A DNA stretch of 36,363 nt from an uncultured Chryseobacterium sp. (GTDB lineage Bacteria; Bacteroidota; Bacteroidia; Flavobacteriales_F; PHOS-HE28): positions 1 through 36,363 of the forward strand of contig CAZFBP010000001.1 in NCBI GenBank assembly GCA_964517255.1. The letters run 5' to 3'. Every line of letters starts with the position of its first letter. The stretch's first letter is position 1. This document shows positions 1,633 through 13,217 of the stretch, one piece after another. Below the pieces are notes generated by a model that had not been told where the DNA came from, did no database searches, and was given only the letters and a program-made list of their open reading frames with translations. Made by a program: the position numbers and the translations under genes.

Positions 1633-1676
1633 CCAAGAAAGGAGGGGGGTCATTAATGACCCCCCTCCTTTCTTGG
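1633..1676. repeat. Perfect 44-bp palindrome (22-bp arms, no spacer) between the GNAT-like gene and the pYEATS-like gene
   Basis: CCAAGAAAGGAGGGGGGTCATT|AATGACCCCCCTCCTTTCTTGG; I verified the arms base by base as exact reverse complements. It lies 19 nt after the stop at 1614 and 47 nt before the ATG at 1723. Confidence 0.9.
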
Positions 1677-1722: not shown

Positions 1723-2589
1723 ATGAGCGCCGATGCCGCACCCGCCTCCGCCACGCCCGCGAGCAACACCGGTTCGGGGCTCTTCCAAGTGGCGCCTTCC
1801 CTGGCGCGCAGCCCCTTGGGCATCATCGCGCTCTTCATCCTGCTGGTGTACGCCATCGCGGGCATCGTGTGCGCCACGTGGAAGCCGCCGGTGCCCGACC
1901 TGCTGCTCTGGTTCATCGTGGGCTTCCCGGTGCTGGTGTTCGTGGTGTTCACCTGGCTGGTGGTGGAGCACCACTTGAAGCTCTACGGGCCGGGCGATTT
2001 CAATGATCAGAACCACTTCCTCGCCATGCAGAAACTGGGCGAAGTGCAGAAAGCCGCGGAATTGCTGCAGCCCGAGCTCAGCGCCGTAGGGCTCCCGGAC
2101 CAGGTGAATCCGGCCAAGCTCGCGGCCGAGGCCATCGCGCTCCTCAAGCGCGGCATGCCGTCTGTTCCAGCGCCCGCGCCAGCGAACGTGCGCGCGGCGA
2201 CCGCGGCTCGCACCACCGATGCCAGCAACGACGACCCGCAGAAAGGGAAATGGGGCGGGCAGAGCGAGCGCGATGGTTACAAGGTCTATGTATCGGGCAA
2301 CACGGTGCGGGAGATCACGCCCGACCTCTTCCGTTTCACCTTATGCGTGAGCAGCATGTCTGATGCGGAACCGTTGACCGCCCCGGTCCGGTTGCATCTG
2401 CACGACAGCTTCGATCCCATGGTTCGCATGCTGAACCCGGAGAACGGCCAGGTGCGCGTGCCCATGGTGGTGTACGGCTCCTTCACCGTGGGCGTGGAGG
2501 TGCTGGTGCCGGGCCACGAGCCGGTGCGGCTGGAGCTCGACCTCGCCGATCCATCGATCCATTCCCCACAGGCCTTCAAAGACCGTTGA
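1723..2589 (+). CDS. Membrane protein with two N-terminal TM helices and a C-terminal prokaryotic YEATS-like (pYEATS) beta-sandwich domain
   Basis: TM1 is LGIIALFILLVYAIAGIVCATW and TM2 is LLLWFIVGFPVLVFVVFTWLVV. The C-terminus (DDPQKGKWGGQSERDGYKV...FRFTLCV...PLTAPVRLHLHDSFDP...VPMVVYGSFTVGVEV...PVRLELDLAD) matches my recollection of the pYEATS family pattern (DP.KG.fGG....nGr...f.v.l.V...PL.g.V.FhLHptF...a.GaFTvGa....t.LELDLa). The ATG at 1723 is preferred over the ORF-track start at 1684. Confidence 0.55.
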   Translation: MSADAAPASATPASNTGSGLFQVAPSLARSPLGIIALFILLVYAIAGIVCATWKPPVPDLLLWFIVGFPVLVFVVFTWLVVEHHLKLYGPGDFNDQNHFLAMQKLGEVQKAAELLQPELSAVGLPDQVNPAKLAAEAIALLKRGMPSVPAPAPANVRAATAARTTDASNDDPQKGKWGGQSERDGYKVYVSGNTVREITPDLFRFTLCVSSMSDAEPLTAPVRLHLHDSFDPMVRMLNPENGQVRVPMVVYGSFTVGVEVLVPGHEPVRLELDLADPSIHSPQAFKDR

Positions 2590-2592
2590 TGC

Positions 2593-3309
2593 ATGAATGA
2601 CCGACTCCTGCCCAAGTGGCTGCAAGCCGTCTTCCTCCTGCTGCCCGTGCTGCTCATCGTGCTCTTCGTGGGCGCGAGCTACTGGCAGGTGAAGGATGTG
2701 AGCGATGGCATCATGGCGCGCGAGCGCGCGGACCTGAGCGCGCTCTGGAGCGCGCAGCCCGGCGATAGCGCGCTCACCAGCGGCGAGTACGCGAGCCTGG
2801 TGAAGTGGCGCGCGCTGGTGGCCATGGAGCACGAGGCCATCGCGCAGCGCTACGAGCAGGGCGGCATCCTGGCGGTGTCGCGCATCACCACCAAGTACCT
2901 CGGCTTCCTCACGGGCATGATCATGGCCATCGCCGGGGCCATCTTCATCGTGGGCCGCATCAAGGAGGGCGAGAGCACGGCGAAGGCCAGCCTCGGCGAG
3001 CGCTCCTTCAGCCTGCGCTCCACTTCGCCCGGCATCTTCTTCGGCGCGCTGGGCACCGTGCTCATGGCCCTCACCATCCAGCAGCACACCGACATCGGCA
3101 TCACCGACACGCCGCTGTACCTGCACCCCACCAACACCTACCTGCTCGACGCGCGTCGCGACACGCGCTCCGACGCGGCCTTCATGAACGCCATCACCGC
3201 GGGCGCCGCCACAGCGCCTGCTCCCGCCGCAGCGGCTGGCGATACCACGGCTCAATCGTCCACGCCGGAACCCAGCGCGGTGGATCCCGCCACCGTGAAG
3301 AAGCCATGA
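2593..3309 (+). CDS. Hypothetical 3-TM membrane protein with an Ala/Pro/Thr-rich C-terminal tail
   Basis: The ATG lies 3 nt after the upstream stop. The TM segments are WLQAVFLLLPVLLIVLFVGASYW, YLGFLTGMIMAIAGAIFIVG and GIFFGALGTVLMALTI. Its TGA (3307-3309) overlaps the next ATG (3306-3308). Confidence 0.65.
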   Translation: MNDRLLPKWLQAVFLLLPVLLIVLFVGASYWQVKDVSDGIMARERADLSALWSAQPGDSALTSGEYASLVKWRALVAMEHEAIAQRYEQGGILAVSRITTKYLGFLTGMIMAIAGAIFIVGRIKEGESTAKASLGERSFSLRSTSPGIFFGALGTVLMALTIQQHTDIGITDTPLYLHPTNTYLLDARRDTRSDAAFMNAITAGAATAPAPAAAAGDTTAQSSTPEPSAVDPATVKKP

Positions 3310-4688
3310 GGCCCCGCCGCCATCTCCTCTTCGCGATCGCGCTCGTGTGCGCATCGCTCGCCCACGGGCAGTCCATCATTCCCGTGAACCGCTTCCTCAC
3401 CTTGCTGGAGCAGCAGGACTTCAACCGGCTGCACGCCGAGGCGCAGGCGGTGCGCGAGGGTCCGTGCGGCAAGCACTACGTGGTGGACTATTTCATCGCG
3501 CGCTCGCTGTGCGGATCGCCCGGCCTGGAGAGCAGCGGTCGCGAATGGTTCGATTACCTCCTGGACCATTACGCCATCCCCAAGGAGCTGCTGGGCGCTT
3601 TCCGCACGGACCGCACGGCATGCGCCTCGGGCGGCAGTGCCGCAGCAAGCCCTGCATTCGACCCGCGCTATCTGCGGCTGGAGATCGACCCCAGCAGCGT
3701 GCGCGGCAAACTGGGCCCGCTCGGCGATTGCTTCGGCACCAAGAAGAAGCCGCTGCACCCGGACCAGCCGCGCCTCACCGAGCAGCTCAACGACCTGAAG
3801 AGCAACTTGATCCCGGTGCAGCGCGCCGATACCGCCGAGGGCATGCGCGTGCTGCGCGGCGCACTAGGGAAGAAGTACCGCATCGCGGTGCACGACCCCT
3901 TCATCCTTGTGGCGCCCAAAGGGCTCAAGGACAAATTGCTGGAGGACCAGGTGGCCGATGAGCTGCGCCGCGCAGCCGAGTACTACGTGAGCGAATTCGG
4001 CTTCGAGCTGCCGCCCTATTACATCATCGCAGGCCTCATGCACGACTCGAAGGCGCTGACGGAATTGAGCAAGGCCTCCCACGGCTTCGCGCTGCCCAAG
4101 GAGTACTTCGGCTATTCGCACACCGGCGACATGTCGCTCTTCACGCGCTCAATCATGGGCAGCGTGGCCACCGCGCGCCACGAGCTCTTCCACCTGCTGG
4201 CGCGCACCAACTCCGGCGACCTGCCGCCCTGGCTCGATGAAGGAGTGGCCAGCGTACTGGAGGCCTCGGAATGGAAGGAGGGGAAATTGAAAGGCAAGCT
4301 GACGTACGGCTACAACTACCGTCTTGAAGCCCTGCAGAACGCACGCCACCTGCGCGAGGTGAGCCAGGCCATACCGCGGATCGATGCGTTGGTGGACATG
4401 GGCTGGGAGCGCTTCGAGGGCCGCGACGATGATCCGGAATGCATCCTGGCCCTGCACTACGCCGTGGCCAAGCACTTCGCGCTCTTCCTGCAGGAGGAAG
4501 GCAAGCTCGCTGCGGTGCTGCGCGCGCACCAACGCCTGGTGACCACCGACGCGGAGGGCAGGACCCGATTCCGCACGAGCCATCAGGTCACCGAGGAGGC
4601 GCTCGGCGAACCGCTCAGCGTTGTCCGCGCCCGCTACGAGATGTGGTTCAAGGACACGTACGGCTTCGACCCATACAAGCCATTCTGA
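3306..4688 (+). CDS. Secreted HExxH metallopeptidase-like protein (MA clan, DUF1570/Peptidase_MA_2-like)
   Basis: The internal ATG at 3306 of ORF 2805..4688 gives a classic signal peptide (MRPRRHLLFAIALVCASLAHGQS). The motif HELFHLL...PPWLDEGVASVLE corresponds to HExxH plus the downstream WL.EG.A glutamate seen in MA-type peptidases. The portion upstream of 3306 overlaps gene 2593..3309 in another frame. Confidence 0.55.
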   Translation: MRPRRHLLFAIALVCASLAHGQSIIPVNRFLTLLEQQDFNRLHAEAQAVREGPCGKHYVVDYFIARSLCGSPGLESSGREWFDYLLDHYAIPKELLGAFRTDRTACASGGSAAASPAFDPRYLRLEIDPSSVRGKLGPLGDCFGTKKKPLHPDQPRLTEQLNDLKSNLIPVQRADTAEGMRVLRGALGKKYRIAVHDPFILVAPKGLKDKLLEDQVADELRRAAEYYVSEFGFELPPYYIIAGLMHDSKALTELSKASHGFALPKEYFGYSHTGDMSLFTRSIMGSVATARHELFHLLARTNSGDLPPWLDEGVASVLEASEWKEGKLKGKLTYGYNYRLEALQNARHLREVSQAIPRIDALVDMGWERFEGRDDDPECILALHYAVAKHFALFLQEEGKLAAVLRAHQRLVTTDAEGRTRFRTSHQVTEEALGEPLSVVRARYEMWFKDTYGFDPYKPF

Positions 4689-4691
4689 GCC

Positions 4692-6458
4692 ATGCCTCTG
4701 CTCGACCTCCACGCCCACTTCAGCTTCAAGCCCGCGAACAGCAGCGGCGCCGATGGCCGCCTGCCCGACAGCAACCACTGGCGCGAGCGCTTCAAGGACC
4801 CCGCCGACTTCAGCCGCTTGATCACGCTGCTGGACCGTGAGGCCGTGAAGAGCAGCCAGCTGCATGGTGATGCGGCCACGGTGGGCGGCTTCCGCGTGGT
4901 GGTGAACGCGTTGTACCCGCTGGAGAAAGGGTTCACTTCGGTCATCTTCAACCGCGAGCTGGCCACCCTCACGGGCCACGACGTGGCCGTGCTGGAGGCC
5001 ATCAATGAGGACCGCATCGCGCCGTTCACCCTGCTCTGCCGCGAGTACGGCAACCTGCTGGCATCCGAACGCGCGGAGCGCGCGCAACGGATCAGTGCCG
5101 TAGGCAATGCCTTCCGCCTGGTGAAGGACTACAACGGCATCGTGGCCGCGCTGCGCGAGGACCCCGCCACCATCTGCATCGTGAACAGCGTGGAGGGCGC
5201 GCACGCCTTCGGCGACCTGCTGCTCGATGCGCGCGGCAACCCCCGGAGCATCCACGACGCCGAGCACGTGCACCTGCGCGGCGTGGGCAACGGGCCACGC
5301 CGCCACGAACTGCGCCGCTGGGTGCAGGCCACGCGCACGAACATCGAGCGCGTGAAGACCACTTGGTCGCAGCCGCCCTTCTTCGTCACGTTCGCGCACC
5401 ATTATTACAACCACCTCTGCGGGCACTCGCCCAGCCTGATGGCCTCCATCAACGCGCTGTGCAAGCAGGATGGCCGGGTGTACGATGAGGCCGGCCAGGC
5501 GCGGGTGCGCTATTTCGACCTGGGCATGCGCACCTGGGGACAGGAGGTGATGGATGAATTGCTGAGCCGCCAGAGCTCCACCAGCCAGCCCGTGCGCCGC
5601 ATCCTCATCGACACCAAGCACATGAGCCCGCAGGCGCGCGTGGACTACTACACCCACCTGGTGCTGCGCAGGCAGCAGGGCGACAAAGTGCCCATCGTGG
5701 TGAGTCACAGCGCGGTGAGCGGCCGCCGGAGCCTGCAGGACACCATCGCGCACAACAACAACCCGGGGGCGGACTTCGATCTGCGCCCTGGTGAGGAAGT
5801 GAGCACGCGCTACTTCTACGATGGCGTGATCAACCTCTTCGACGACGAGATCCAGCGCGTGGTGGCCACCGATGGCATCATGGGCCTGATGATCGACGAG
5901 CGCCGCATCATGGGACGCGAGATCCCGCCCGAAGGCGGCGTGACCATGGACACCTTCACCGCGCGCAGCAAGGCGATGCGCGGCCTAATGCACGACTGGA
6001 CCATGCTGAAGCAGCGCCATGCCTGGGGCCGTGTGAATGCGGCCGACTTCGCCAACCAGCTCGCGAGCATCAACCGCCAGATGGAGCCCTTGCTCGCCGA
6101 TCTGCGTCCGGCCTACCTGAGCGTGGTGTTCCGGCAGCTCTTCCACATCATGGCGCTGGTGGGCGAGCGCGGCTGGAACCATGTGGCACTCGGCACGGAC
6201 TACGACGGCGTGATCAATCCGATCGACATCTACAAGCAGAGCAGCGACATGGCACGCCTGCGCCAGGACCTCATCGATTTCTGGAACGCCAGCCTCAACA
6301 GCCCCGATGCCGAAGTACGCGCGCTGTACACGCTGCACGGCTACGGCCAGGACCCGGCCGTGTGGGTGGACAAGCTGCTCTGGGGCAACGGCATGGACTT
6401 CCTCCGCAAGTACTACAACGACGACTACCTCCTTCACGGGCAGCAGCCCATCATCTGA
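4692..6458 (+). CDS. Peptidase M19 (membrane/renal dipeptidase)-like amidohydrolase-fold protein, unusually long (588 aa), no signal peptide
   Basis: An M19-like motif series is present: LDLHAH (metal-binding N-terminus), NSVEGAHAF, VTFAHHYYNH, IVVSHSAVSG and VALGTDYDGVINPI (compare GsDfDG). The ATG lies 3 nt after the upstream stop. Confidence 0.55.
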   Translation: MPLLDLHAHFSFKPANSSGADGRLPDSNHWRERFKDPADFSRLITLLDREAVKSSQLHGDAATVGGFRVVVNALYPLEKGFTSVIFNRELATLTGHDVAVLEAINEDRIAPFTLLCREYGNLLASERAERAQRISAVGNAFRLVKDYNGIVAALREDPATICIVNSVEGAHAFGDLLLDARGNPRSIHDAEHVHLRGVGNGPRRHELRRWVQATRTNIERVKTTWSQPPFFVTFAHHYYNHLCGHSPSLMASINALCKQDGRVYDEAGQARVRYFDLGMRTWGQEVMDELLSRQSSTSQPVRRILIDTKHMSPQARVDYYTHLVLRRQQGDKVPIVVSHSAVSGRRSLQDTIAHNNNPGADFDLRPGEEVSTRYFYDGVINLFDDEIQRVVATDGIMGLMIDERRIMGREIPPEGGVTMDTFTARSKAMRGLMHDWTMLKQRHAWGRVNAADFANQLASINRQMEPLLADLRPAYLSVVFRQLFHIMALVGERGWNHVALGTDYDGVINPIDIYKQSSDMARLRQDLIDFWNASLNSPDAEVRALYTLHGYGQDPAVWVDKLLWGNGMDFLRKYYNDDYLLHGQQPII

Positions 6459-6464
6459 CGCACC

Positions 6465-7283
6465 ATGCGCTCCGAAGACGGATTCATCCTGATGAACGGC
6501 GACGAGTTCGCGCGATACCTGGCCACCGCGCACGTGCCGCGCGCGGTGGTGCGGCTGCAGAACCACCACACCTACATCCCCGGCTACGCCCATTTCAAGA
6601 ACGACAATCATTTCTCGTTGCTGCGCAGCATGAAGCGCAGCCACGTGCAGCAGCGCAAGTGGCGCGACATCGGGCAGAACCTCACCACCTTCCCCGATGG
6701 CACCATCGCCGTATGCCGTCCGCTCGCGGAGACGCCTGCCGCCATCTACGGTGCCAACACCGGCGCGATGGCCATGGAGCATGTGGGCTGGTTCGATACG
6801 GGCGAGGATGCCATGACGGCGGCCCACAAGGAGATCATCGTGCAGGCCAATGCGCTGCTGTGCAAGCGCTTCAACCTGGTGCCGGGCACGGAGAGCATCG
6901 TGTACCATCACTGGTACGACCTCAACACCGGCAAGCGCACCAACGGCACGGGCGTCACCAAGAGCTGCCCGGGCACGGCCTTCTTCGGCGGCAACACCGT
7001 GCAGGCGGCGCAGGCCCATTTCATCCCGCTGGTGCAGCAGGCCCTTGCCGGCTTGCAGGCCGGAGCAGCGCCTGCGGCATGGCCTGCGCTGGGCAGCGGC
7101 GCCGTTGATGCCGACGCGTTGAACGTGCGCGACCGGCCCGCCACCAGCGGCGCGGTGCTGCGCAAGCTTCGGCGCGGCGACCGCGTGCAATGGTTCGCCG
7201 AGAGCGCCGCCTACGGCTCCATGCCCTGGGTGCGCATCGATGCCAGCCGTGAGGAATGGGTGGCGAAGCCTTACATCCAATGA
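6465..7283 (+). CDS. N-acetylmuramoyl-L-alanine amidase (Amidase_2/PGRP fold) with a C-terminal SH3b domain; no signal peptide
   Basis: Zn ligands of the T7-lysozyme type are present (LQNHHTY ... IVYHHWY ... TKSCPG). The C-terminus (ALNVRDRPATSGAVLRKLRRGDRVQW...WVRIDASREEWVAKPYI) is a typical SH3_3 pattern. The N-terminus MRSEDGFILMNGDEF is not hydrophobic. Its TGA overlaps the next ATG. Confidence 0.75.
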   Translation: MRSEDGFILMNGDEFARYLATAHVPRAVVRLQNHHTYIPGYAHFKNDNHFSLLRSMKRSHVQQRKWRDIGQNLTTFPDGTIAVCRPLAETPAAIYGANTGAMAMEHVGWFDTGEDAMTAAHKEIIVQANALLCKRFNLVPGTESIVYHHWYDLNTGKRTNGTGVTKSCPGTAFFGGNTVQAAQAHFIPLVQQALAGLQAGAAPAAWPALGSGAVDADALNVRDRPATSGAVLRKLRRGDRVQWFAESAAYGSMPWVRIDASREEWVAKPYIQ

Positions 7284-8407
7284 CATCGTCCGTGATCAAC
7301 GACGCGTTGCCCAAACTCACCTGGCGCTGGGTCATCATCCTGAGCTCATTGCTCATCGCATTGGCCATCACCTACGGCGTACTGCATGGCCACAACACGC
7401 GCGCGGGCACCGGCCGCGAGCGCGTCTCGCTGGAGAAGGAGGACGTGGACCTGCTGCGCCGTGTACTGGAGGTGACTGACACCTCGGCTGCTGCGGGCCA
7501 GCCCAGGCTCATGGCCGGGCATCCAGCACGCGAAGCCTTCGTGGGCATCCTCGATACGCGTCTGCCCAAATGGGCGCATGACGATCGCGATGCCAAGCTG
7601 AAGGTGATGGACGCGCTGCGCCCGGCGGATGCATTGAGCTACGTGAGCATCACGCGTTTCGAGGTGCGCAGCTTCTTCTGGCTCACCGGCTGGCCCGCTG
7701 TGATGGAACTGGTGTTCTGGACGCTCTTCGGGTCGTTGTGCAGCCTGCTCTACAACATCTACGACGTGCGGCGGCGCAACGCCATCGAGAATCGTAACAC
7801 GCCCGATGGCGCGGAGCGCGGCTTCGATGCGAGCGAGATGCCCAACCACCTGGCCAAGCTGGTGTTCTCGCCCTTTGTGAGCATCGTGGTCGTCTTCGGC
7901 TACAAGTACATCGCGGAGGGCGGCAGCAAGGGCGTGCTGGAGACGAGCACCGGCGTGGTCATCATGTCCTTCCTCCTCGGCTTCTACAGCGCGCGCGCCA
8001 TGCGCATGCTCGACCGCATCAAGGATGTGCTGCTGCCGTATGACAACAAGCCTTCGGACCCCTCATCCCCGCCGAAACCCGCGAGCCAGGCCTTGGTCTC
8101 CATCGCCCTGAGCCTCGACCCCTCGGTGGTGAGCGCGCATCCGCAGGACGTGGAAGAGATGCAAGCCGAGCTGCGCGGTGCCGCTATGACCTTGACGCCC
8201 GAAGGCGATGGCAAAGCCGCTGCAACCGTGCTCGATGCGGACGAGGAGCGGGCCTGCTTCAGCGCGCAGGTTCGCACAGGGCGGTACTCGGTGAAGGCGC
8301 ATTGCGCATGCACCAACGGCCTGAACCTCGTGGGCGAGTCGGTCATTGAGGTACAGGGCGATGTCACGGTTCCGCTTCCACTAAAGGCCGACGAGACGAA
8401 CGGCTGA
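7280..8407 (+). CDS. Hypothetical 4-TM membrane protein with a beta-rich C-terminal domain
   Basis: ATG at 7280 overlaps the upstream TGA (7281-7283). The TM segments are WRWVIILSSLLIALAITYGVL, FFWLTGWPAVMELVFWTLFGSLCSLLY, LAKLVFSPFVSIVVVFGYKYI and GVVIMSFLLGFYSARAM. The tail (GRYSVKAHCACTNGLNLVGESVIEVQGDVTVPLPLK) resembles Ig/CarboxypepD_reg-like sandwiches. Confidence 0.6.
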   Translation: MTSSVINDALPKLTWRWVIILSSLLIALAITYGVLHGHNTRAGTGRERVSLEKEDVDLLRRVLEVTDTSAAAGQPRLMAGHPAREAFVGILDTRLPKWAHDDRDAKLKVMDALRPADALSYVSITRFEVRSFFWLTGWPAVMELVFWTLFGSLCSLLYNIYDVRRRNAIENRNTPDGAERGFDASEMPNHLAKLVFSPFVSIVVVFGYKYIAEGGSKGVLETSTGVVIMSFLLGFYSARAMRMLDRIKDVLLPYDNKPSDPSSPPKPASQALVSIALSLDPSVVSAHPQDVEEMQAELRGAAMTLTPEGDGKAAATVLDADEERACFSAQVRTGRYSVKAHCACTNGLNLVGESVIEVQGDVTVPLPLKADETNG

Positions 8408-8531: not shown

Positions 8532-11500
8532 TCACGCCAGTGCCGCGCCAGCACTGCCGAGTTCCGTCTTGTCCTCGGCTGCGCGCAGGCGCTCGCGCTT
8601 CTCCGCGCGCTTGTACTTCCACCGGGTGAGCAGCAGGTACATGCTGGGCACAATGGCCAGGGTTAGGAAGGTGGCGAAGCTCAGGCCGAAGATCACGGCC
8701 CAGCTCATGGGGCCCCAGAACACGGTATTGTCGCCGCCGAGGCTGAACTGCGGATCGAGGTGGGTGAAGAGCGTGAAGAAGTTGATGTTGAAGCCGATGG
8801 CCAGCGGGAGGAGGCCCAGCACGGTGGTCACGGCGGTGAGGATCACCGGGCGCAATCGGCGCGCACCGGCCTCCACCACCGCACGGCGCAGCTCCTCGCG
8901 CGGCAGGCGGCCCTCTTCGGCGATGCCCAGCTCGGCCTTGCGGCGGCTGATGAGCAGGTTCATGAAGTCGATGAGCACGATGGCGTTGTTCACCACCACG
9001 CCCGCCAGGCTGATCAGGCCGATCATGGTCATCATGATGATGAAGTCCATGCGGAAGATGATGAGGCCCAGGAGCACGCCGATCAGCGAGAAGAGCACGC
9101 TGGTCATGATGATGGCGGGATTGCTGGCGCTGTTGAACTGCAGCACGATGATGAGGAAGACCAGGAAGACGGCCATGAGCAGCGCGGTGCTGAGGAAGTT
9201 CATCTCCTTGGCCTGCTCCTCCATCTGCCCTGCGAAGACATAGGTGTAGCGCGGGTCCTTGTCGTAGTTGGCCAGGCCGGCCTTGATCTGGCCCACCACC
9301 TCGGTGGGGTTATAGCCCACGAGCAAGTTGCTCTGCACGCTCACCACGCGGTCCAGCTCCTGGCGCTTCACGGCGCTGAAGGTGCTGGTGCGGCCGGCAG
9401 TGGCCACGGCGCTGATGGGCACCTGGCGGATCTGTCCGTTGGTCTGGTCGCGGAAAGTGACGCGCATGTTCATGAGCGCATCGGCATCGTAGCGGTACTC
9501 GTCCTTCAGGCGCAGCACCACGTCGTAATCGTCCTCGCCCTCCTTGAAGGTGCTCACCTCCTTGCCGTAGAGCGCGGTGCGGATGGCGTCGCCGATGGCG
9601 TAGGTGCTCACGTTGAAGCGACGCGCCTTGCTGCGGTCCACCTCCAGGGGCATCTCGGGCTTGCCCTGCTCGATGTCGATCTTCAGTTCCTCCACGCCGC
9701 GCACGCCGAGCTCATCGATGTGCTTCTTCAGGCGCGTGGCCTCGGCGATCATCTCCTCGATGCTGCCGCCGCGGATCTCGATGTTCACGGGCTTGCCCTG
9801 CGGCGGGCCGTCAGCGTTCTTCTCCACGGTCACCACCGCGCCGGGCACCGGGTCGATGCCCTTGCGCAGCTCGTCCATCACGGCGGTGCTGCTGATGCCC
9901 TTGCGGTCGGCGAACTTCACGAAGCTCACCTGGATGCGCGCCTTGTGCGGCGTGGGCAGCAGGCTGGGGCCCTGCGCGGGGTCGCTGGTGCCCTCGCCCA
10001 CCTGCGCGATCACGCTGCTGATGAGGAAGTTCTCCGTGCCGTCCTTGTACCCGGGCTTGTCGAGGATGGCGAGCACCTGCCCCTCGACCACCCGCGCGAT
10101 ACTGTCGGTCTTGGCGATGTCGGTGCCGATGGGCTCCTCGATGTAGATGTTCACGTACTGCGGATCGCCGATGGGGAAGAACTCCACCTTGGGCGGGAAC
10201 ACGCCCATGAGCATGAACGAGAAGATGAGCAGGCCGAATGTGCCCAAGAGGTACCACAGCGGCTTGCGGCCGGTGAGGATGCGGTCGAGTCGGCGCTTGT
10301 ACCACTCCTCGAACTTCGGCCAGGTGCGCTCCTGGAAGCGCTTGGTCTGCGGGAAGAGCCAGTAGAGGTTGAGCAGCACCATCAGGCCTGCAGCGATGAG
10401 CATGTTGCCGATGGTGAACACGGCGACACTGCCGCCGAAATGGCCCGCGAGCGAGAGCACGAGGCCGGGCGCCAGGAAGCGCAGAGCCAGGCGCCACGAC
10501 TTGCGCGATGTCGGCTCATGCTCCTTCACCTTCATGTACAGCGCGGCCAGCACCGGGTTGATGATGATGCCCACGAAGAGCGAGCTGCTGAGCACGATCA
10601 TGAGCGTGATGGGCAGGAACTTCATGAACTCGCCCATGATGCCCGGCCAGAAGAGCAGCGGCAGGAACACGGCCACGGTGGTGGCGGTGCTGCCGATGAT
10701 GGGCCAGGCCACCTCGCCGATGCCGGCCTTCGCGGCGCGCGATGCCGAGTAGCCCTCGCTCATGAGGCGGTAGGTGTTCTCGATCACCACGATGCCGTTG
10801 TCCACGAGCATGCCCAGGGCGAGCACCAGGCTGAAGAGCACCATCATGTTGAGGGTGACGCCGTAGATGTTGAGCAGGAAGATGCTCAGCAGCATGCTCA
10901 TCGGGATGGCGAGGCCCACGAAGAGCGCGTTGCGCAGGCCGAGGAAGAAGAGCAGCACGCCCACCACCAGCACCACGCCGAAGATGATGGAGTTCTCCAG
11001 CTCGTCCACCTGGGTGCGGGTCTGGTCGCTCTGGTCGCCGGTGATGGTGATGGTGAGGTCGCTGGGGAAGCGCGTGGCCTTCATGTGCGCGAGCAGGTGA
11101 TTCACGCTGTCGCTCACCACCAGGAGGTTCTCGCCGGCGCGCTTCAGCACATCGAGCATCACCACGGGCTTGCCGAATTCGCGGGCATAGCTCTTGGGCT
11201 CCTCGTAGGTGAAGTCCACATCGGCGATCTCGCCGATGCGCACGATGTCGAGCTTCTCCTGCTTCACGATGATGGAGCGCACCTGGTCCATGTCGGTGAA
11301 CTGGCCATCGACGGTGACGGTGCGGCGCATGCCGTCGATCAGCACCTCGCCGCCGCTCACGCTCACGTTCTCGCTGCGGATGGCGTTGGCCACGTCATCG
11401 AAGCTCACCTCGCGGCTCTCCATGGCGTGCAGGTCCAGGGCCACGCGCACCTCCTTCTTCGGCACGCCGCGGATATCCACCTTGCTCACGCCGGGCTGGT

Positions 11501-12041
11501 CCTCGATGGCGTCCTCCAATTCCTCCGCCCATTCGTTGAGCTGCTCCAGGCTGTAGTCGCCGCTGAGGTTGATGTACATCACGGGCACGAGCTCGCTGAA
11601 GTTCATCTCGAAGATGTTCGGCTCCGCGGGCAGGTCGTTGGGGAAGTCGGGGTCGCCCATGGCCTTGTCCACGGCGTCCTTCACCTTGCGCAGCGCCTCG
11701 GTGGGCGTCACGTTGAAGTTGAACTTCACCTGGATGTTGCTGTAGCCCTGCACGCTGGTGCTGTTGATCTCATCGACGCCGCTGATGGACTTGATCTCCT
11801 TCTCCAGCGGACGGGTGATGAGCTTCTCCATGTCGTTGGGCGCGTTGCCGGGGTAGGCGGTGCCCACGTAGATCTCCGGCGTGATCACCTCCGGGAAGGC
11901 CTCGCGGGGCATGGCCAGGTAGGCCATGAGGCCGGTGAGGGCGATGAGCACGGTGACCACCAGCACGGTGACCTTGTTGTCCACCGCCCAGCTGCTCCAG
12001 CTGAACTCCTTGTCCTTGTGTGCCATGTTCTGCGTTTCCAT
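8532..12041 (-). CDS. Efflux RND transporter permease subunit (AcrB/CzcA-type)
   Basis: The protein is about 1165 aa. The N-terminus AVDNKVTVLVVTVLIALTGLMAYLAMPREAFPEV is typical of ACR_tran proteins, and the TM/periplasmic-loop architecture is duplicated. It is the last gene after tolC and the MFP. An alternative ATG lies at 12026. Confidence 0.92.
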   Translation of the reverse strand: METQNMAHKDKEFSWSSWAVDNKVTVLVVTVLIALTGLMAYLAMPREAFPEVITPEIYVGTAYPGNAPNDMEKLITRPLEKEIKSISGVDEINSTSVQGYSNIQVKFNFNVTPTEALRKVKDAVDKAMGDPDFPNDLPAEPNIFEMNFSELVPVMYINLSGDYSLEQLNEWAEELEDAIEDQPGVSKVDIRGVPKKEVRVALDLHAMESREVSFDDVANAIRSENVSVSGGEVLIDGMRRTVTVDGQFTDMDQVRSIIVKQEKLDIVRIGEIADVDFTYEEPKSYAREFGKPVVMLDVLKRAGENLLVVSDSVNHLLAHMKATRFPSDLTITITGDQSDQTRTQVDELENSIIFGVVLVVGVLLFFLGLRNALFVGLAIPMSMLLSIFLLNIYGVTLNMMVLFSLVLALGMLVDNGIVVIENTYRLMSEGYSASRAAKAGIGEVAWPIIGSTATTVAVFLPLLFWPGIMGEFMKFLPITLMIVLSSSLFVGIIINPVLAALYMKVKEHEPTSRKSWRLALRFLAPGLVLSLAGHFGGSVAVFTIGNMLIAAGLMVLLNLYWLFPQTKRFQERTWPKFEEWYKRRLDRILTGRKPLWYLLGTFGLLIFSFMLMGVFPPKVEFFPIGDPQYVNIYIEEPIGTDIAKTDSIARVVEGQVLAILDKPGYKDGTENFLISSVIAQVGEGTSDPAQGPSLLPTPHKARIQVSFVKFADRKGISSTAVMDELRKGIDPVPGAVVTVEKNADGPPQGKPVNIEIRGGSIEEMIAEATRLKKHIDELGVRGVEELKIDIEQGKPEMPLEVDRSKARRFNVSTYAIGDAIRTALYGKEVSTFKEGEDDYDVVLRLKDEYRYDADALMNMRVTFRDQTNGQIRQVPISAVATAGRTSTFSAVKRQELDRVVSVQSNLLVGYNPTEVVGQIKAGLANYDKDPRYTYVFAGQMEEQAKEMNFLSTALLMAVFLVFLIIVLQFNSASNPAIIMTSVLFSLIGVLLGLIIFRMDFIIMMTMIGLISLAGVVVNNAIVLIDFMNLLISRRKAELGIAEEGRLPREELRRAVVEAGARRLRPVILTAVTTVLGLLPLAIGFNINFFTLFTHLDPQFSLGGDNTVFWGPMSWAVIFGLSFATFLTLAIVPSMYLLLTRWKYKRAEKRERLRAAEDKTELGSAGAALA

Positions 12042-12053
12042 GCGGAGGTGGGA

Positions 12054-13217
12054 TCAGGCGCCCTTGCGCACGCTCACGTGCTGCTGGTCCACGATCAGGC
12101 GCGCGCCCTCGTCGATGAGGCGCTCGTTCCCTTGCAGGCCACCGGTGCTGTCGCGCGCCACCATCACATTGCCCCGATAGGTCATCAAGGGTTTCACGAA
12201 GCGCTTCTGCGCCACGCCCGTGCCGTTGCGCTCGTCGAGCACGAACACGTAGCTCTCGCCCTTGCTGTTCTCCATCACCATGCGGCTGGGCAGCACGATG
12301 GCGCCTTCCTGCGCGAGGTCGCGGATGCTCACGCTGGCCAGCTGGTTCGGGCGCAGCCTGACGCCATCGGGCGCTTTCAGCGAGACCTTGAAGGTGCGGT
12401 TGTTGGGGTTCACGAACTGGCCCACATGCTCCACCGTGGCGGTGAATTCATCCGCGGTGCCGCTCAGGCGCACGGTCACGGGATCACCGCCCTTCACGCT
12501 GTTCAGGTAGGCCTCGGCCACATCGCATTCAATGCTCGCACGGCCCAGGGCCACCACGCGCGCCACTGGCATCAGCGGGTTGGCCATGTCGCCCACGTTT
12601 GGGAAGATCTCGTCCACCACGCCATCGAAGGGCGCCATGATCTGCGCGCTGTTCCACTGCTCGCGCAGCGCGGCGATGCTCGCGTCCAGCGATTCCTTGC
12701 TGCTCCTGGCCTGCAGGTACTGGATCTCGCTGCCGATCTTCTGCTCCCACAATTTGCTCTGGCGCTCGTACACCTCGTTCGCGAGCGTCAGGTTCGCCTC
12801 GAGCTGGTCGATCTGCTTGCTCAGCGCGTCGGTATCGATGTCCACGATGCGCTGGCCCTTGCGCACGTTCATGCCGGGCCTCACCAGGATGGCGCGCACG
12901 GTGCCGCCCAGGGTGGTGTGCAGCAGCGCGTTCTGGTCGGCCTTCACGGTGCCGTGCACCTGCACTTCATGCGCGAAGGCGCCGAGCGCGAGGTCGTGCA
13001 CGGTGACGCTCGTGAGGGCGCGCTGCAAGCTGCTGTCGTTGGCAGCGAGCCAGGCCTGCGCTTCCTTGATCAGCTCGCCGGTGGCGGCATGACTGGCCTT
13101 CAGGCTGTCCAGTTCGGCGCGCTTCTTCCCAAGGTCGTCGGTGGGTGTTGCGGCGCTGCAGGCCGCGAGCAGCGCGGCGATGGCGAGGTATGCGGTCGTG
13201 TTCTTCATCACGTTCAT
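12054..13217 (-). CDS. Efflux RND periplasmic adaptor (membrane fusion protein, HlyD family), lipoprotein
   Basis: A lipobox is present (LAIAALLAAC). It is followed by a coiled-coil segment and a barrel-sandwich motif (IMAPFDGVVDEI). Confidence 0.88.
   Translation of the reverse strand: MNVMKNTTAYLAIAALLAACSAATPTDDLGKKRAELDSLKASHAATGELIKEAQAWLAANDSSLQRALTSVTVHDLALGAFAHEVQVHGTVKADQNALLHTTLGGTVRAILVRPGMNVRKGQRIVDIDTDALSKQIDQLEANLTLANEVYERQSKLWEQKIGSEIQYLQARSSKESLDASIAALREQWNSAQIMAPFDGVVDEIFPNVGDMANPLMPVARVVALGRASIECDVAEAYLNSVKGGDPVTVRLSGTADEFTATVEHVGQFVNPNNRTFKVSLKAPDGVRLRPNQLASVSIRDLAQEGAIVLPSRMVMENSKGESYVFVLDERNGTGVAQKRFVKPLMTYRGNVMVARDSTGGLQGNERLIDEGARLIVDQQHVSVRKGA

Follow-up and report, generated by a model that had tools for sequence, protein, structure and literature searches.

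A predicted prokaryotic YEATS domain joined to an unnamed, recurrent two-helix membrane module in an uncultured Chryseobacterium sp.

YEATS domains are known as chromatin readers of eukaryotes, and prokaryotic versions of the domain (pYEATS, Pfam PF20305) have been catalogued in bacteria, among them membrane-anchored ones. The closest described systems are the YLATT-pYEATS proteins, in which a small N-terminal transmembrane (TM) module of the Pfam family PF20303 (YLATT, 'YEATS-Like-Associating Three TM') is connected by a helical linker to a pYEATS domain at the C-terminus; they carry the NCBI name 'YEATS-associated helix-containing protein' and are exemplified by protein P0097 of Spirosoma and the loci L020, L021, L027, L048 and L049. 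Immune effectors that combine TM helices with a sensor are likewise known, namely CBASS Cap15 with two TM helices (2TM) and a beta-barrel, PycTM of Pycsar, Cam1 and Csx23 of type III CRISPR systems and the SLATT modules. Fusions of pYEATS with TIR, SIR2, ParA, FRG, CHAT or STAND domains belong to predicted conflict systems, and a preprint from 2026 lists pYEATS as a ligand-binding sensor in such systems. The domain is not mentioned in two eLife papers from 2020 and 2021 or in one supplement, and a literature search for 'YLATT' or 'YEATS-like' yielded no relevant paper; the names used here rest on the Pfam titles. We analysed gene g1, which encodes a pYEATS protein and is located on a contig of an uncultured Chryseobacterium sp. 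that constitutes, in its entire length of 36.4 kb, the window and belongs to a 3.48-Mb metagenome-assembled genome with 65% G+C.

The g1 gene corresponds to the open reading frame (ORF) at positions 1723-2589 of the forward strand (frame +1), which extends from an ATG at 1723 to a stop codon ending at 2589 and encodes a protein of 288 amino acids (P0001) with the full-length homologues P0002-P0026. The start methionine is shared with a homologue of 87% identity, and a signal peptide is not evident. The deduced protein consists of a conserved 2TM module (residues 22-103, positions 1786..2031, +) with helices TM1 at residues 31-52 (1813-1878, +) and TM2 at residues 59-83 (1897-1971, +), a variable linker (residues 104-167, positions 2032..2223, +) and a pYEATS domain in the wide sense (residues 168-288, positions 2224..2586, +), of which the part described by the Pfam model covers positions 2329-2544.

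The YLATT-pYEATS proteins have the same arrangement, with a small TM module in front, a helical linker and the pYEATS domain at the C-terminus, and the motifs DDPQKGxWGG, FHLHDSF and YGAFTVG are common to both groups. The membrane modules of the two groups are nevertheless unrelated, YLATT having three helices and the g1 module two, and the latter, unlike YLATT, is common to proteins with REC-like, nuclease-like and other domains. Since the defining YLATT module is absent, the g1 product is assigned to the pYEATS family but not to the YLATT-pYEATS proteins. Membrane-anchored bacterial YEATS domains being catalogued already, the new and testable part of g1 is its unnamed 2TM module.

The pYEATS domain of g1 and related architectures

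The initial annotation of the window had proposed a pYEATS-like C-terminus and had named a Pfam search and a comparison of an AlphaFold model with YEATS and immunoglobulin (Ig)-like folds as checks, both of which bore the proposal out. The PF20305 profile matched the g1 protein with 37.7 bits (gathering cut-off 26.9; E 1.9e-9), residues 203-274 being aligned with positions 1-72 of the 73 profile positions. In a six-frame search of the 3.48-Mb genome g1 was the sole pYEATS match (40.8 bits), and the same search detected none in 14 control genomes. An AlphaFold2 model built on 25 homologues predicted an all-beta sandwich for residues ~170-288 with a predicted local distance difference test (pLDDT) above 90, and the first 36 matches of this model in a Foldseek comparison with the PDB were all eukaryotic YEATS domains (Taf14, GAS41, AF9 and ENL), with Taf14 (3qrl, E 2e-4) giving the best value; a fold search against the BFVD returned generic Ig-like matches only. 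Moreover, a domain profile derived from 23 diverse proteins of differing architectures was compared with the PDB sequences, and 34 of the 35 sequences matched were YEATS chains (YEATS2, E 0.0055).

In the resulting profile alignment, the FHLHDSF motif pairs with FFLHPSY of YEATS2 and the YGAFTVG motif with GWGEFPV. The corresponding pocket residues of g1 are H227, S229, F230, Y251, G252 and F254. Within the homologue alignment H227, F230, G252 and F254 are invariant, position 229 is occupied by Ser or Thr and position 251 is aromatic throughout; across the pYEATS architectures, H-x-[ST]-F and [YWF]-G-x-F show little or no variation. In the structures of AF9 and YEATS2, the motifs H-x-S-[FY] and [YW]-G-x-F form the His/Ser/aromatic and aromatic-Gly-x-Phe clamp around the acyl-amide of acyl-lysine. 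The C-terminal half of g1 is identified by these comparisons as a prokaryotic YEATS domain that retains the residues of the eukaryotic acyl-amide clamp. While the Ig-like sandwich and the aligned pocket motifs are shared with the eukaryotic readers AF9, ENL, YEATS2, GAS41 and Taf14, the sequence identity is only 15-20% with target TM-scores of 0.44-0.52, and the g1 protein differs in being membrane-tethered, in being neither nuclear nor accompanied by chromatin partners, and in carrying the additional N-terminal DDPQKGxWGG motif. This near-invariant signature (DDPQKGKWGG in g1) opens the domain at residues 170-179 (positions 2230-2259), the conserved region (168-288) being longer than the Pfam model. 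Located ahead of the modelled part, it is the most conserved motif among the pYEATS family members sampled; an obvious eukaryotic counterpart of it was not found.

The architectures of pYEATS proteins were surveyed in 49 loci with the DDPQKGxWG signature from species-representative genomes, 46 of which matched PF20305. The pYEATS domain was C-terminal in every architecture seen, and its N-terminal partners included TIR_2 (n=8), ParA-like (n=7), YLATT (n=5) and SIR2_2 (n=3) as well as STAND NTPases, FRG, KAP, S8 subtilase, trypsin and CHAT domains. In about 25 of the 49 proteins the N-terminus contains TM segments, among which no fewer than four kinds were distinguished, namely the present module, YLATT, a 3TM type with the sequence 'EISDWLTKIIVG' (~10 genomes) and another 2TM type (loci L035, L045, L046, L047 and L056, not YLATT). 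Clusters with the exact 2TM-pYEATS architecture number at least 25 when formed at 90% identity and come from Flavobacteriales, Gemmatimonadales and other metagenomic sources. The view of the initial annotation that a membrane-bound pYEATS protein is unusual is contradicted by these numbers and by the existing Pfam entry for YLATT.

The 3TM type mentioned above represents an uncatalogued module of Bacteroidota with the motif (E/Q)ISDW(L/I)TKI(I)VG, present in ~10 pYEATS proteins (loci L015, L017, L018, L022, L023, L026, L031, L044, L050 and L053, not YLATT). A relationship of the g1 module to this family was considered and ruled out (hhalign probability 0.3%), as was its classification as a divergent YLATT (hhalign probability 1%; no match to PF20303 at E<=1).

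The two-helix module and its cytoplasmic partners

The two N-terminal TM helices and the helical, Ala/Pro-containing linker that had been recognized initially were found both by hydropathy analysis, which placed the helices at residues 32-50 and 63-81, and in the AlphaFold2 model, from which the boundaries given above were taken. TM2 is followed by the juxtamembrane motif HHxKLYGPxDF. The linker, which has low pLDDT in the model, comprises two helices (residues 96-121 and 130-142) and, after them, a disordered segment rich in Ala and Pro (residues 144-167).

Residues 22-103, and not the YEATS part, align with many proteins at ~28% query coverage and about 50-55% identity, the C-termini of these proteins being different from that of g1. 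When residues 20-105 served as phmmer query against 1.84 billion representatives of 50% identity clusters, the module was detected in 1276 clusters at E<=1e-3 and in 570 clusters at E<=1e-10. It is N-terminal in every match, and the host proteins measure ~100-330 amino acids. Positions P31, P69, P90 and D92 are invariant, L32, G33, Y43, F64, H83, K86, L87 and Y88 are invariant or nearly so, and the consensus SPLGIIALF...WF..FPV...HHxKLY.PxDF is present in g1. Within the 2TM-pYEATS family the mean pairwise identity is higher in the module (0.56) than in the pYEATS domain (0.49) and in the linker (0.23). Models covering the module were not found in Pfam, NCBIfam or PADLOC; the N-terminal part of the phage protein family phrog_26238, to which no function is assigned, matches the g1 module with E 3.6e-9. 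The 2TM segment is a conserved, mobile domain of its own, found in combination with many cytoplasmic domains that are unrelated to one another.

Counts of Lys plus Arg (K+R) are 1.7-2.4 for the N-terminal flank of the helices and 1.4-2.5 for the C-terminal flank, against ~1.0 for the short loop, which is net-acidic. Because both flanks are richer in K+R than the loop and because the REC-like and nuclease-like partners of the module work in the cytoplasm, an N-in/C-in topology with a cytoplasmic pYEATS domain is most likely, in line with the earlier suggestion. The combination of an N-terminal TM hairpin with a cytoplasmic ligand-binding domain in one polypeptide resembles that of Cap15 and the other TM-plus-sensor immune effectors and serves as a working analogy only, whereas the ligand class differs and a sequence relationship to these effectors was not found. 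Neither a Pfam SLATT nor a PADLOC match was obtained for g1, the window does not encode a cyclase, and a signal-producing gene was not detected near g1.

The C-terminal regions of 192 module-bearing proteins fell into at least 32 BLAST groups. The largest group comprises 71 proteins (P0042 and 70 others) with an unannotated domain of ~150 amino acids and an E..DG..ExK motif. The AlphaFold2 model of this domain in P0042 (pLDDT >90) folds like nucleases of the restriction-endonuclease type, with modest Foldseek likenesses (E 7e-3, probability 1.0) to AF1548, the R2 RLE domain, Can2/Card1/Cdn1 and Mus81; a sequence search of the PDB with a profile of the nuclease-like domain gave nothing significant. 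The model suggests that this group is a family of membrane-tethered nuclease-like proteins. REC-like domains form the second group (45 proteins) and pYEATS domains the third, the count of 38 proteins in the latter being inflated by the manner of sampling. Further partners are TPR and wHTH-like domains and many unassigned ones. The REC-like partners are non-catalytic and occur in stand-alone 2TM-REC proteins of ~255 amino acids.

One of the latter, the E. coli protein WP_000433086.1 (256 amino acids, annotated as 'response regulator'), is encoded by 28 of 5426 complete genomes (0.5%), always in an islet between yfgI and guaA, where it is accompanied by the remnant of an integrase and by an AAA ATPase matching the PDC-M01A, AriA, PtuA and GajA models (loci L066, UPEC132 chromosome, 10107-12851, and L065, 11980-12750). 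The gene for P0042 (L062, 8001-8921) adjoins genes for patatin-TPR-S, TIR, ThsB_TIR and QueC/TGT (Dpd-type) proteins. The module is also present on plasmids and in proteins of the REC-like, nuclease-like and other types encoded by 20 IMG/VR contigs, among which the pYEATS type was not found; all IMG/VR members tested match phrog_26238. A tblastn search of a phage genome collection with P0001 gave no match.

Possible roles of the g1 protein

With a probability of about 0.45, we tentatively propose that g1 encodes a self-contained cytoplasmic reader with a membrane output module of the conflict or defence type. The pYEATS domain would face the cytoplasm and act as the input, responding to an acylated lysine or to another N-acyl or acetamido ligand that arises or is altered when the cell is stressed or infected. 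Ligand binding would alter the oligomeric state of the 2TM module, which would act as the output, and the altered oligomer would perturb the inner membrane by leak or depolarisation. Such a mode of output parallels proposals for the YLATT and SLATT modules and has been demonstrated for other immune effectors that combine TM helices with a sensor. In this lineage, g1 is predicted to be co-transcribed with g2, encoding a 3TM protein, and with g3, encoding an exported zincin-like protein, and in this genome probably also with g4, g5 and g6; the products of g2-g6 might represent cargo specific to the lineage or act on the envelope as co-effectors.

The roles of input and output are proposed because the slot of the module is occupied elsewhere by TIR, SIR2, protease or YLATT domains. 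Moreover, the stand-alone 2TM-REC proteins have no other candidate for an output, and the module appears too conserved for a passive anchor. The N-terminal partners of pYEATS, which are typically conflict effectors or NTPases, provide a supporting context. The soluble TIR, SIR2, ParA, FRG, CHAT and STAND fusions share the C-terminal sensor domain with g1 but join it to an enzymatic or NTPase partner, where g1 has a membrane module. The initial annotation had interpreted the TM helices as an anchor taking the place of an enzymatic effector, which overlooks that the 2TM segment is itself a conserved mobile domain occupying this slot. The intact reader pocket, most likely located at the inner side of the membrane, suggests that in bacteria acylation, or some N-acyl metabolite, serves to signal danger or state. 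Of greater use is the membrane half, the strongly conserved and uncatalogued 2TM module, which is combined with many input domains and is present in certain E. coli strains and prophages, where defence genes often adjoin it. It would add a family to the defence-gene catalogues, and its occurrence in E. coli allows the concept of one small output module in the membrane, served by exchangeable sensors, to be tested in a laboratory organism. A bolder version of this proposal is quite improbable: the module would define a new and widespread family of membrane effectors gated by signals, equivalent in function to SLATT/YLATT and Cap15 and joined in evolution to more than 30 cytoplasmic inputs (acyl-amide reader, phospho-receiver, DNA-binding nuclease fold, wHTH and TPR among them), and in this genome g1 would be the pYEATS-gated trigger of a programmed-lysis cassette, the opened membrane allowing the leaderless endolysin-like amidase and the peptidases to reach the wall. 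If true, an abortive-infection device would have been made from a chromatin-reader fold.

Several observations weigh against a sensor with membrane output and lend weight to other explanations. The TM helices lack conserved charged or polar residues of the pore-lining type, and the commonest partner is a PD-(D/E)xK-like domain whose E..DG..ExK motif is intact; if this domain were the effector, as it could be, the 2TM module would be an anchor. A passive anchor that merely places nuclease-like, receiver, reader, wHTH or TPR domains at the inner face of the membrane, where they meet incoming DNA or membrane-proximal proteins, would account for both observations with no further effector; its pYEATS domain would bind or sequester an acylated target, and the membrane would not be damaged. 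We regard this explanation as unlikely, since a module retained across 1276 clusters with ~56% identity, prolines that do not vary and a fixed HHxKLYGPxDF motif is unexpected for a simple anchor and the stand-alone 2TM-REC receiver would be left without an output. Further points against the proposed output are that the defence association was judged by inspection of ~10 neighbourhoods, with no statistic, that PADLOC-DB 2.0 gave no match and NCBIfam no usable match for g1-g6 or for other module-bearing proteins (eight in the case of PADLOC-DB), and that several family members sit among housekeeping genes. The last point would agree with an ordinary housekeeping membrane signalling protein whose defence-like neighbours are coincidental, as would the RND efflux operon and the IleRS and RNase H genes in the flanks of the window; the patchy distribution (0 of 60 relatives and 0.5% of the E. 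coli genomes), the presence of the module on viral contigs and plasmids and the effector-type partners of pYEATS make this very improbable.

The tight coupling of g1 to g2 and g3 in four lineages would equally fit a multi-protein role, and the initial annotation had favoured a membrane-tethered reader or scaffold leading a hydrolase operon. The pYEATS domain of such a scaffold would sense a ligand, for instance an acylated protein or a precursor of the cell wall that carries an N-acetyl group, and control g2 and, via g2, the exported g3, and in this genome the g4 peptidase, the g5 amidase-SH3 protein and g6 as well. The six genes are located on one strand with gaps of +3, -4, +3, +6 and -4 nt, and all of them are kept in L069, a 90% identical contig. 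The g1-g2-g3 order is retained at only 45-54% identity in L001/L002, L008/L009 and L011 (g3 where the contig permits), and the 2TM-pYEATS gene of L006 also heads a same-strand array of degradative enzymes that includes an SH3_3 protein. However, most 2TM-pYEATS genes have other neighbours: five more distant loci are surrounded by unrelated genes, and L004, L005, L006 and L010 lack g2-g6 altogether. In L003 (8858-9195) the pYEATS gene is intact, whereas g2-g3 have shrunk to two short ORFs, one of which still matches the final 59 residues of g3, and the most distant g3 pairs with g2 behind an unrelated gene with no pYEATS gene upstream (L067/L068; L067 295-2372). The genes g4-g6 were not found in L001/L002, L008/L009 or L011 and occur, among the relatives, in L069 only. 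Of the proposed hydrolase operon, the association with g2 and g3 is thus upheld at ~50% identity, whereas that with g4-g6 is confined to one lineage, and the scaffold explanation appears rather doubtful.

Neighbouring genes and distribution of g1

The g2 gene (2593..3309, +) starts 3 nt past g1 and encodes a membrane protein of 238 amino acids with two clear TM segments and a likely third one; it gave no family match and shares 52% identity with its homologue in L001 and 47% with that in L067. Its stop codon overlaps the start (ATGA) of g3 (3306..4688, +), which encodes a protein of 460 amino acids predicted to be exported by a Sec-type leader and carrying a zincin-like HELFH...E (HExxH) motif with a weak match to DUF1570 (E 0.083). 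The g3 family is very rare, with 4 clusters among 5.8 billion proteins, and a metagenome scan with g3 patterns revealed no relative. The leaderless product of g4 (4692..6458, +; 588 amino acids) is an M19-like dipeptidase homologue with a partial match to PF01244 (E 4.6e-10). The g5 gene (6465..7283, +) specifies a leaderless, endolysin-like N-acetylmuramoyl-L-alanine amidase homologue with Amidase_2 and SH3_3 domains that matches PHROG endolysin and amidase families. With regard to a possible phage-type holin-endolysin lysis cassette, neither a holin family match nor any other phage gene was found near it, and the flanks of the window are chromosomal. Sequence searches of the PDB with g3, g4 and g5 gave nothing significant. 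The start of g6 (7280..8407, +), which encodes a 4TM protein with a beta-rich tail, overlaps the g5 stop codon; an alternative ATG is present at 7256, and the L069 homologue aligns from residue 11.

Other genes accompany the more distant 2TM-pYEATS genes. In L006 (679-15847), a KAP NTPase gene is located upstream, and the downstream same-strand run encodes a 768-amino-acid protein of no assigned function, a caspase-like C14 peptidase, a phospholipase-C-type phosphoesterase, an SH3_3+GmrSD_C nuclease-like protein and a CHAT protease; this layout of a sensor plus mixed degradative enzymes echoes that of the window. L004 encodes a giant protein of 1545 amino acids matching PDC-M54A and LmuA, and L010 a RelA/SpoT protein matching PDC-S33.

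The flanks of the window contain housekeeping genes, including a TetR/OEP/HlyD/AcrB (RND) efflux operon and genes for IleRS, RNase H, an M28 peptidase and SpoIIE. The g1 gene was absent from the genomes of 36 species of the same genus and 24 of the same class, and it is accessory in its genus. An empty site was not definable from flank synteny because the same-genus genomes are too diverged, AcrB sharing 59-69% identity and the flanks lying on different contigs. Upstream of g1, an overlapping gene pair (389-1614) includes the weakly GNAT-like g0b (Acetyltransf_10, E 0.18). A pairing of g0b as GNAT 'writer' with g1 as YEATS 'reader' was considered and rejected, given the weak GNAT match; it is also contradicted by g0b homologues in relatives without g1 and by g1 relatives with other upstream genes. 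Between this pair and the g1 cluster, a perfect palindrome of 44 bp (1633..1676) was read in the sequence; it consists of two 22-nt arms with G6/C6 runs, is not followed by a T-tract and may serve as a terminator or insulator.

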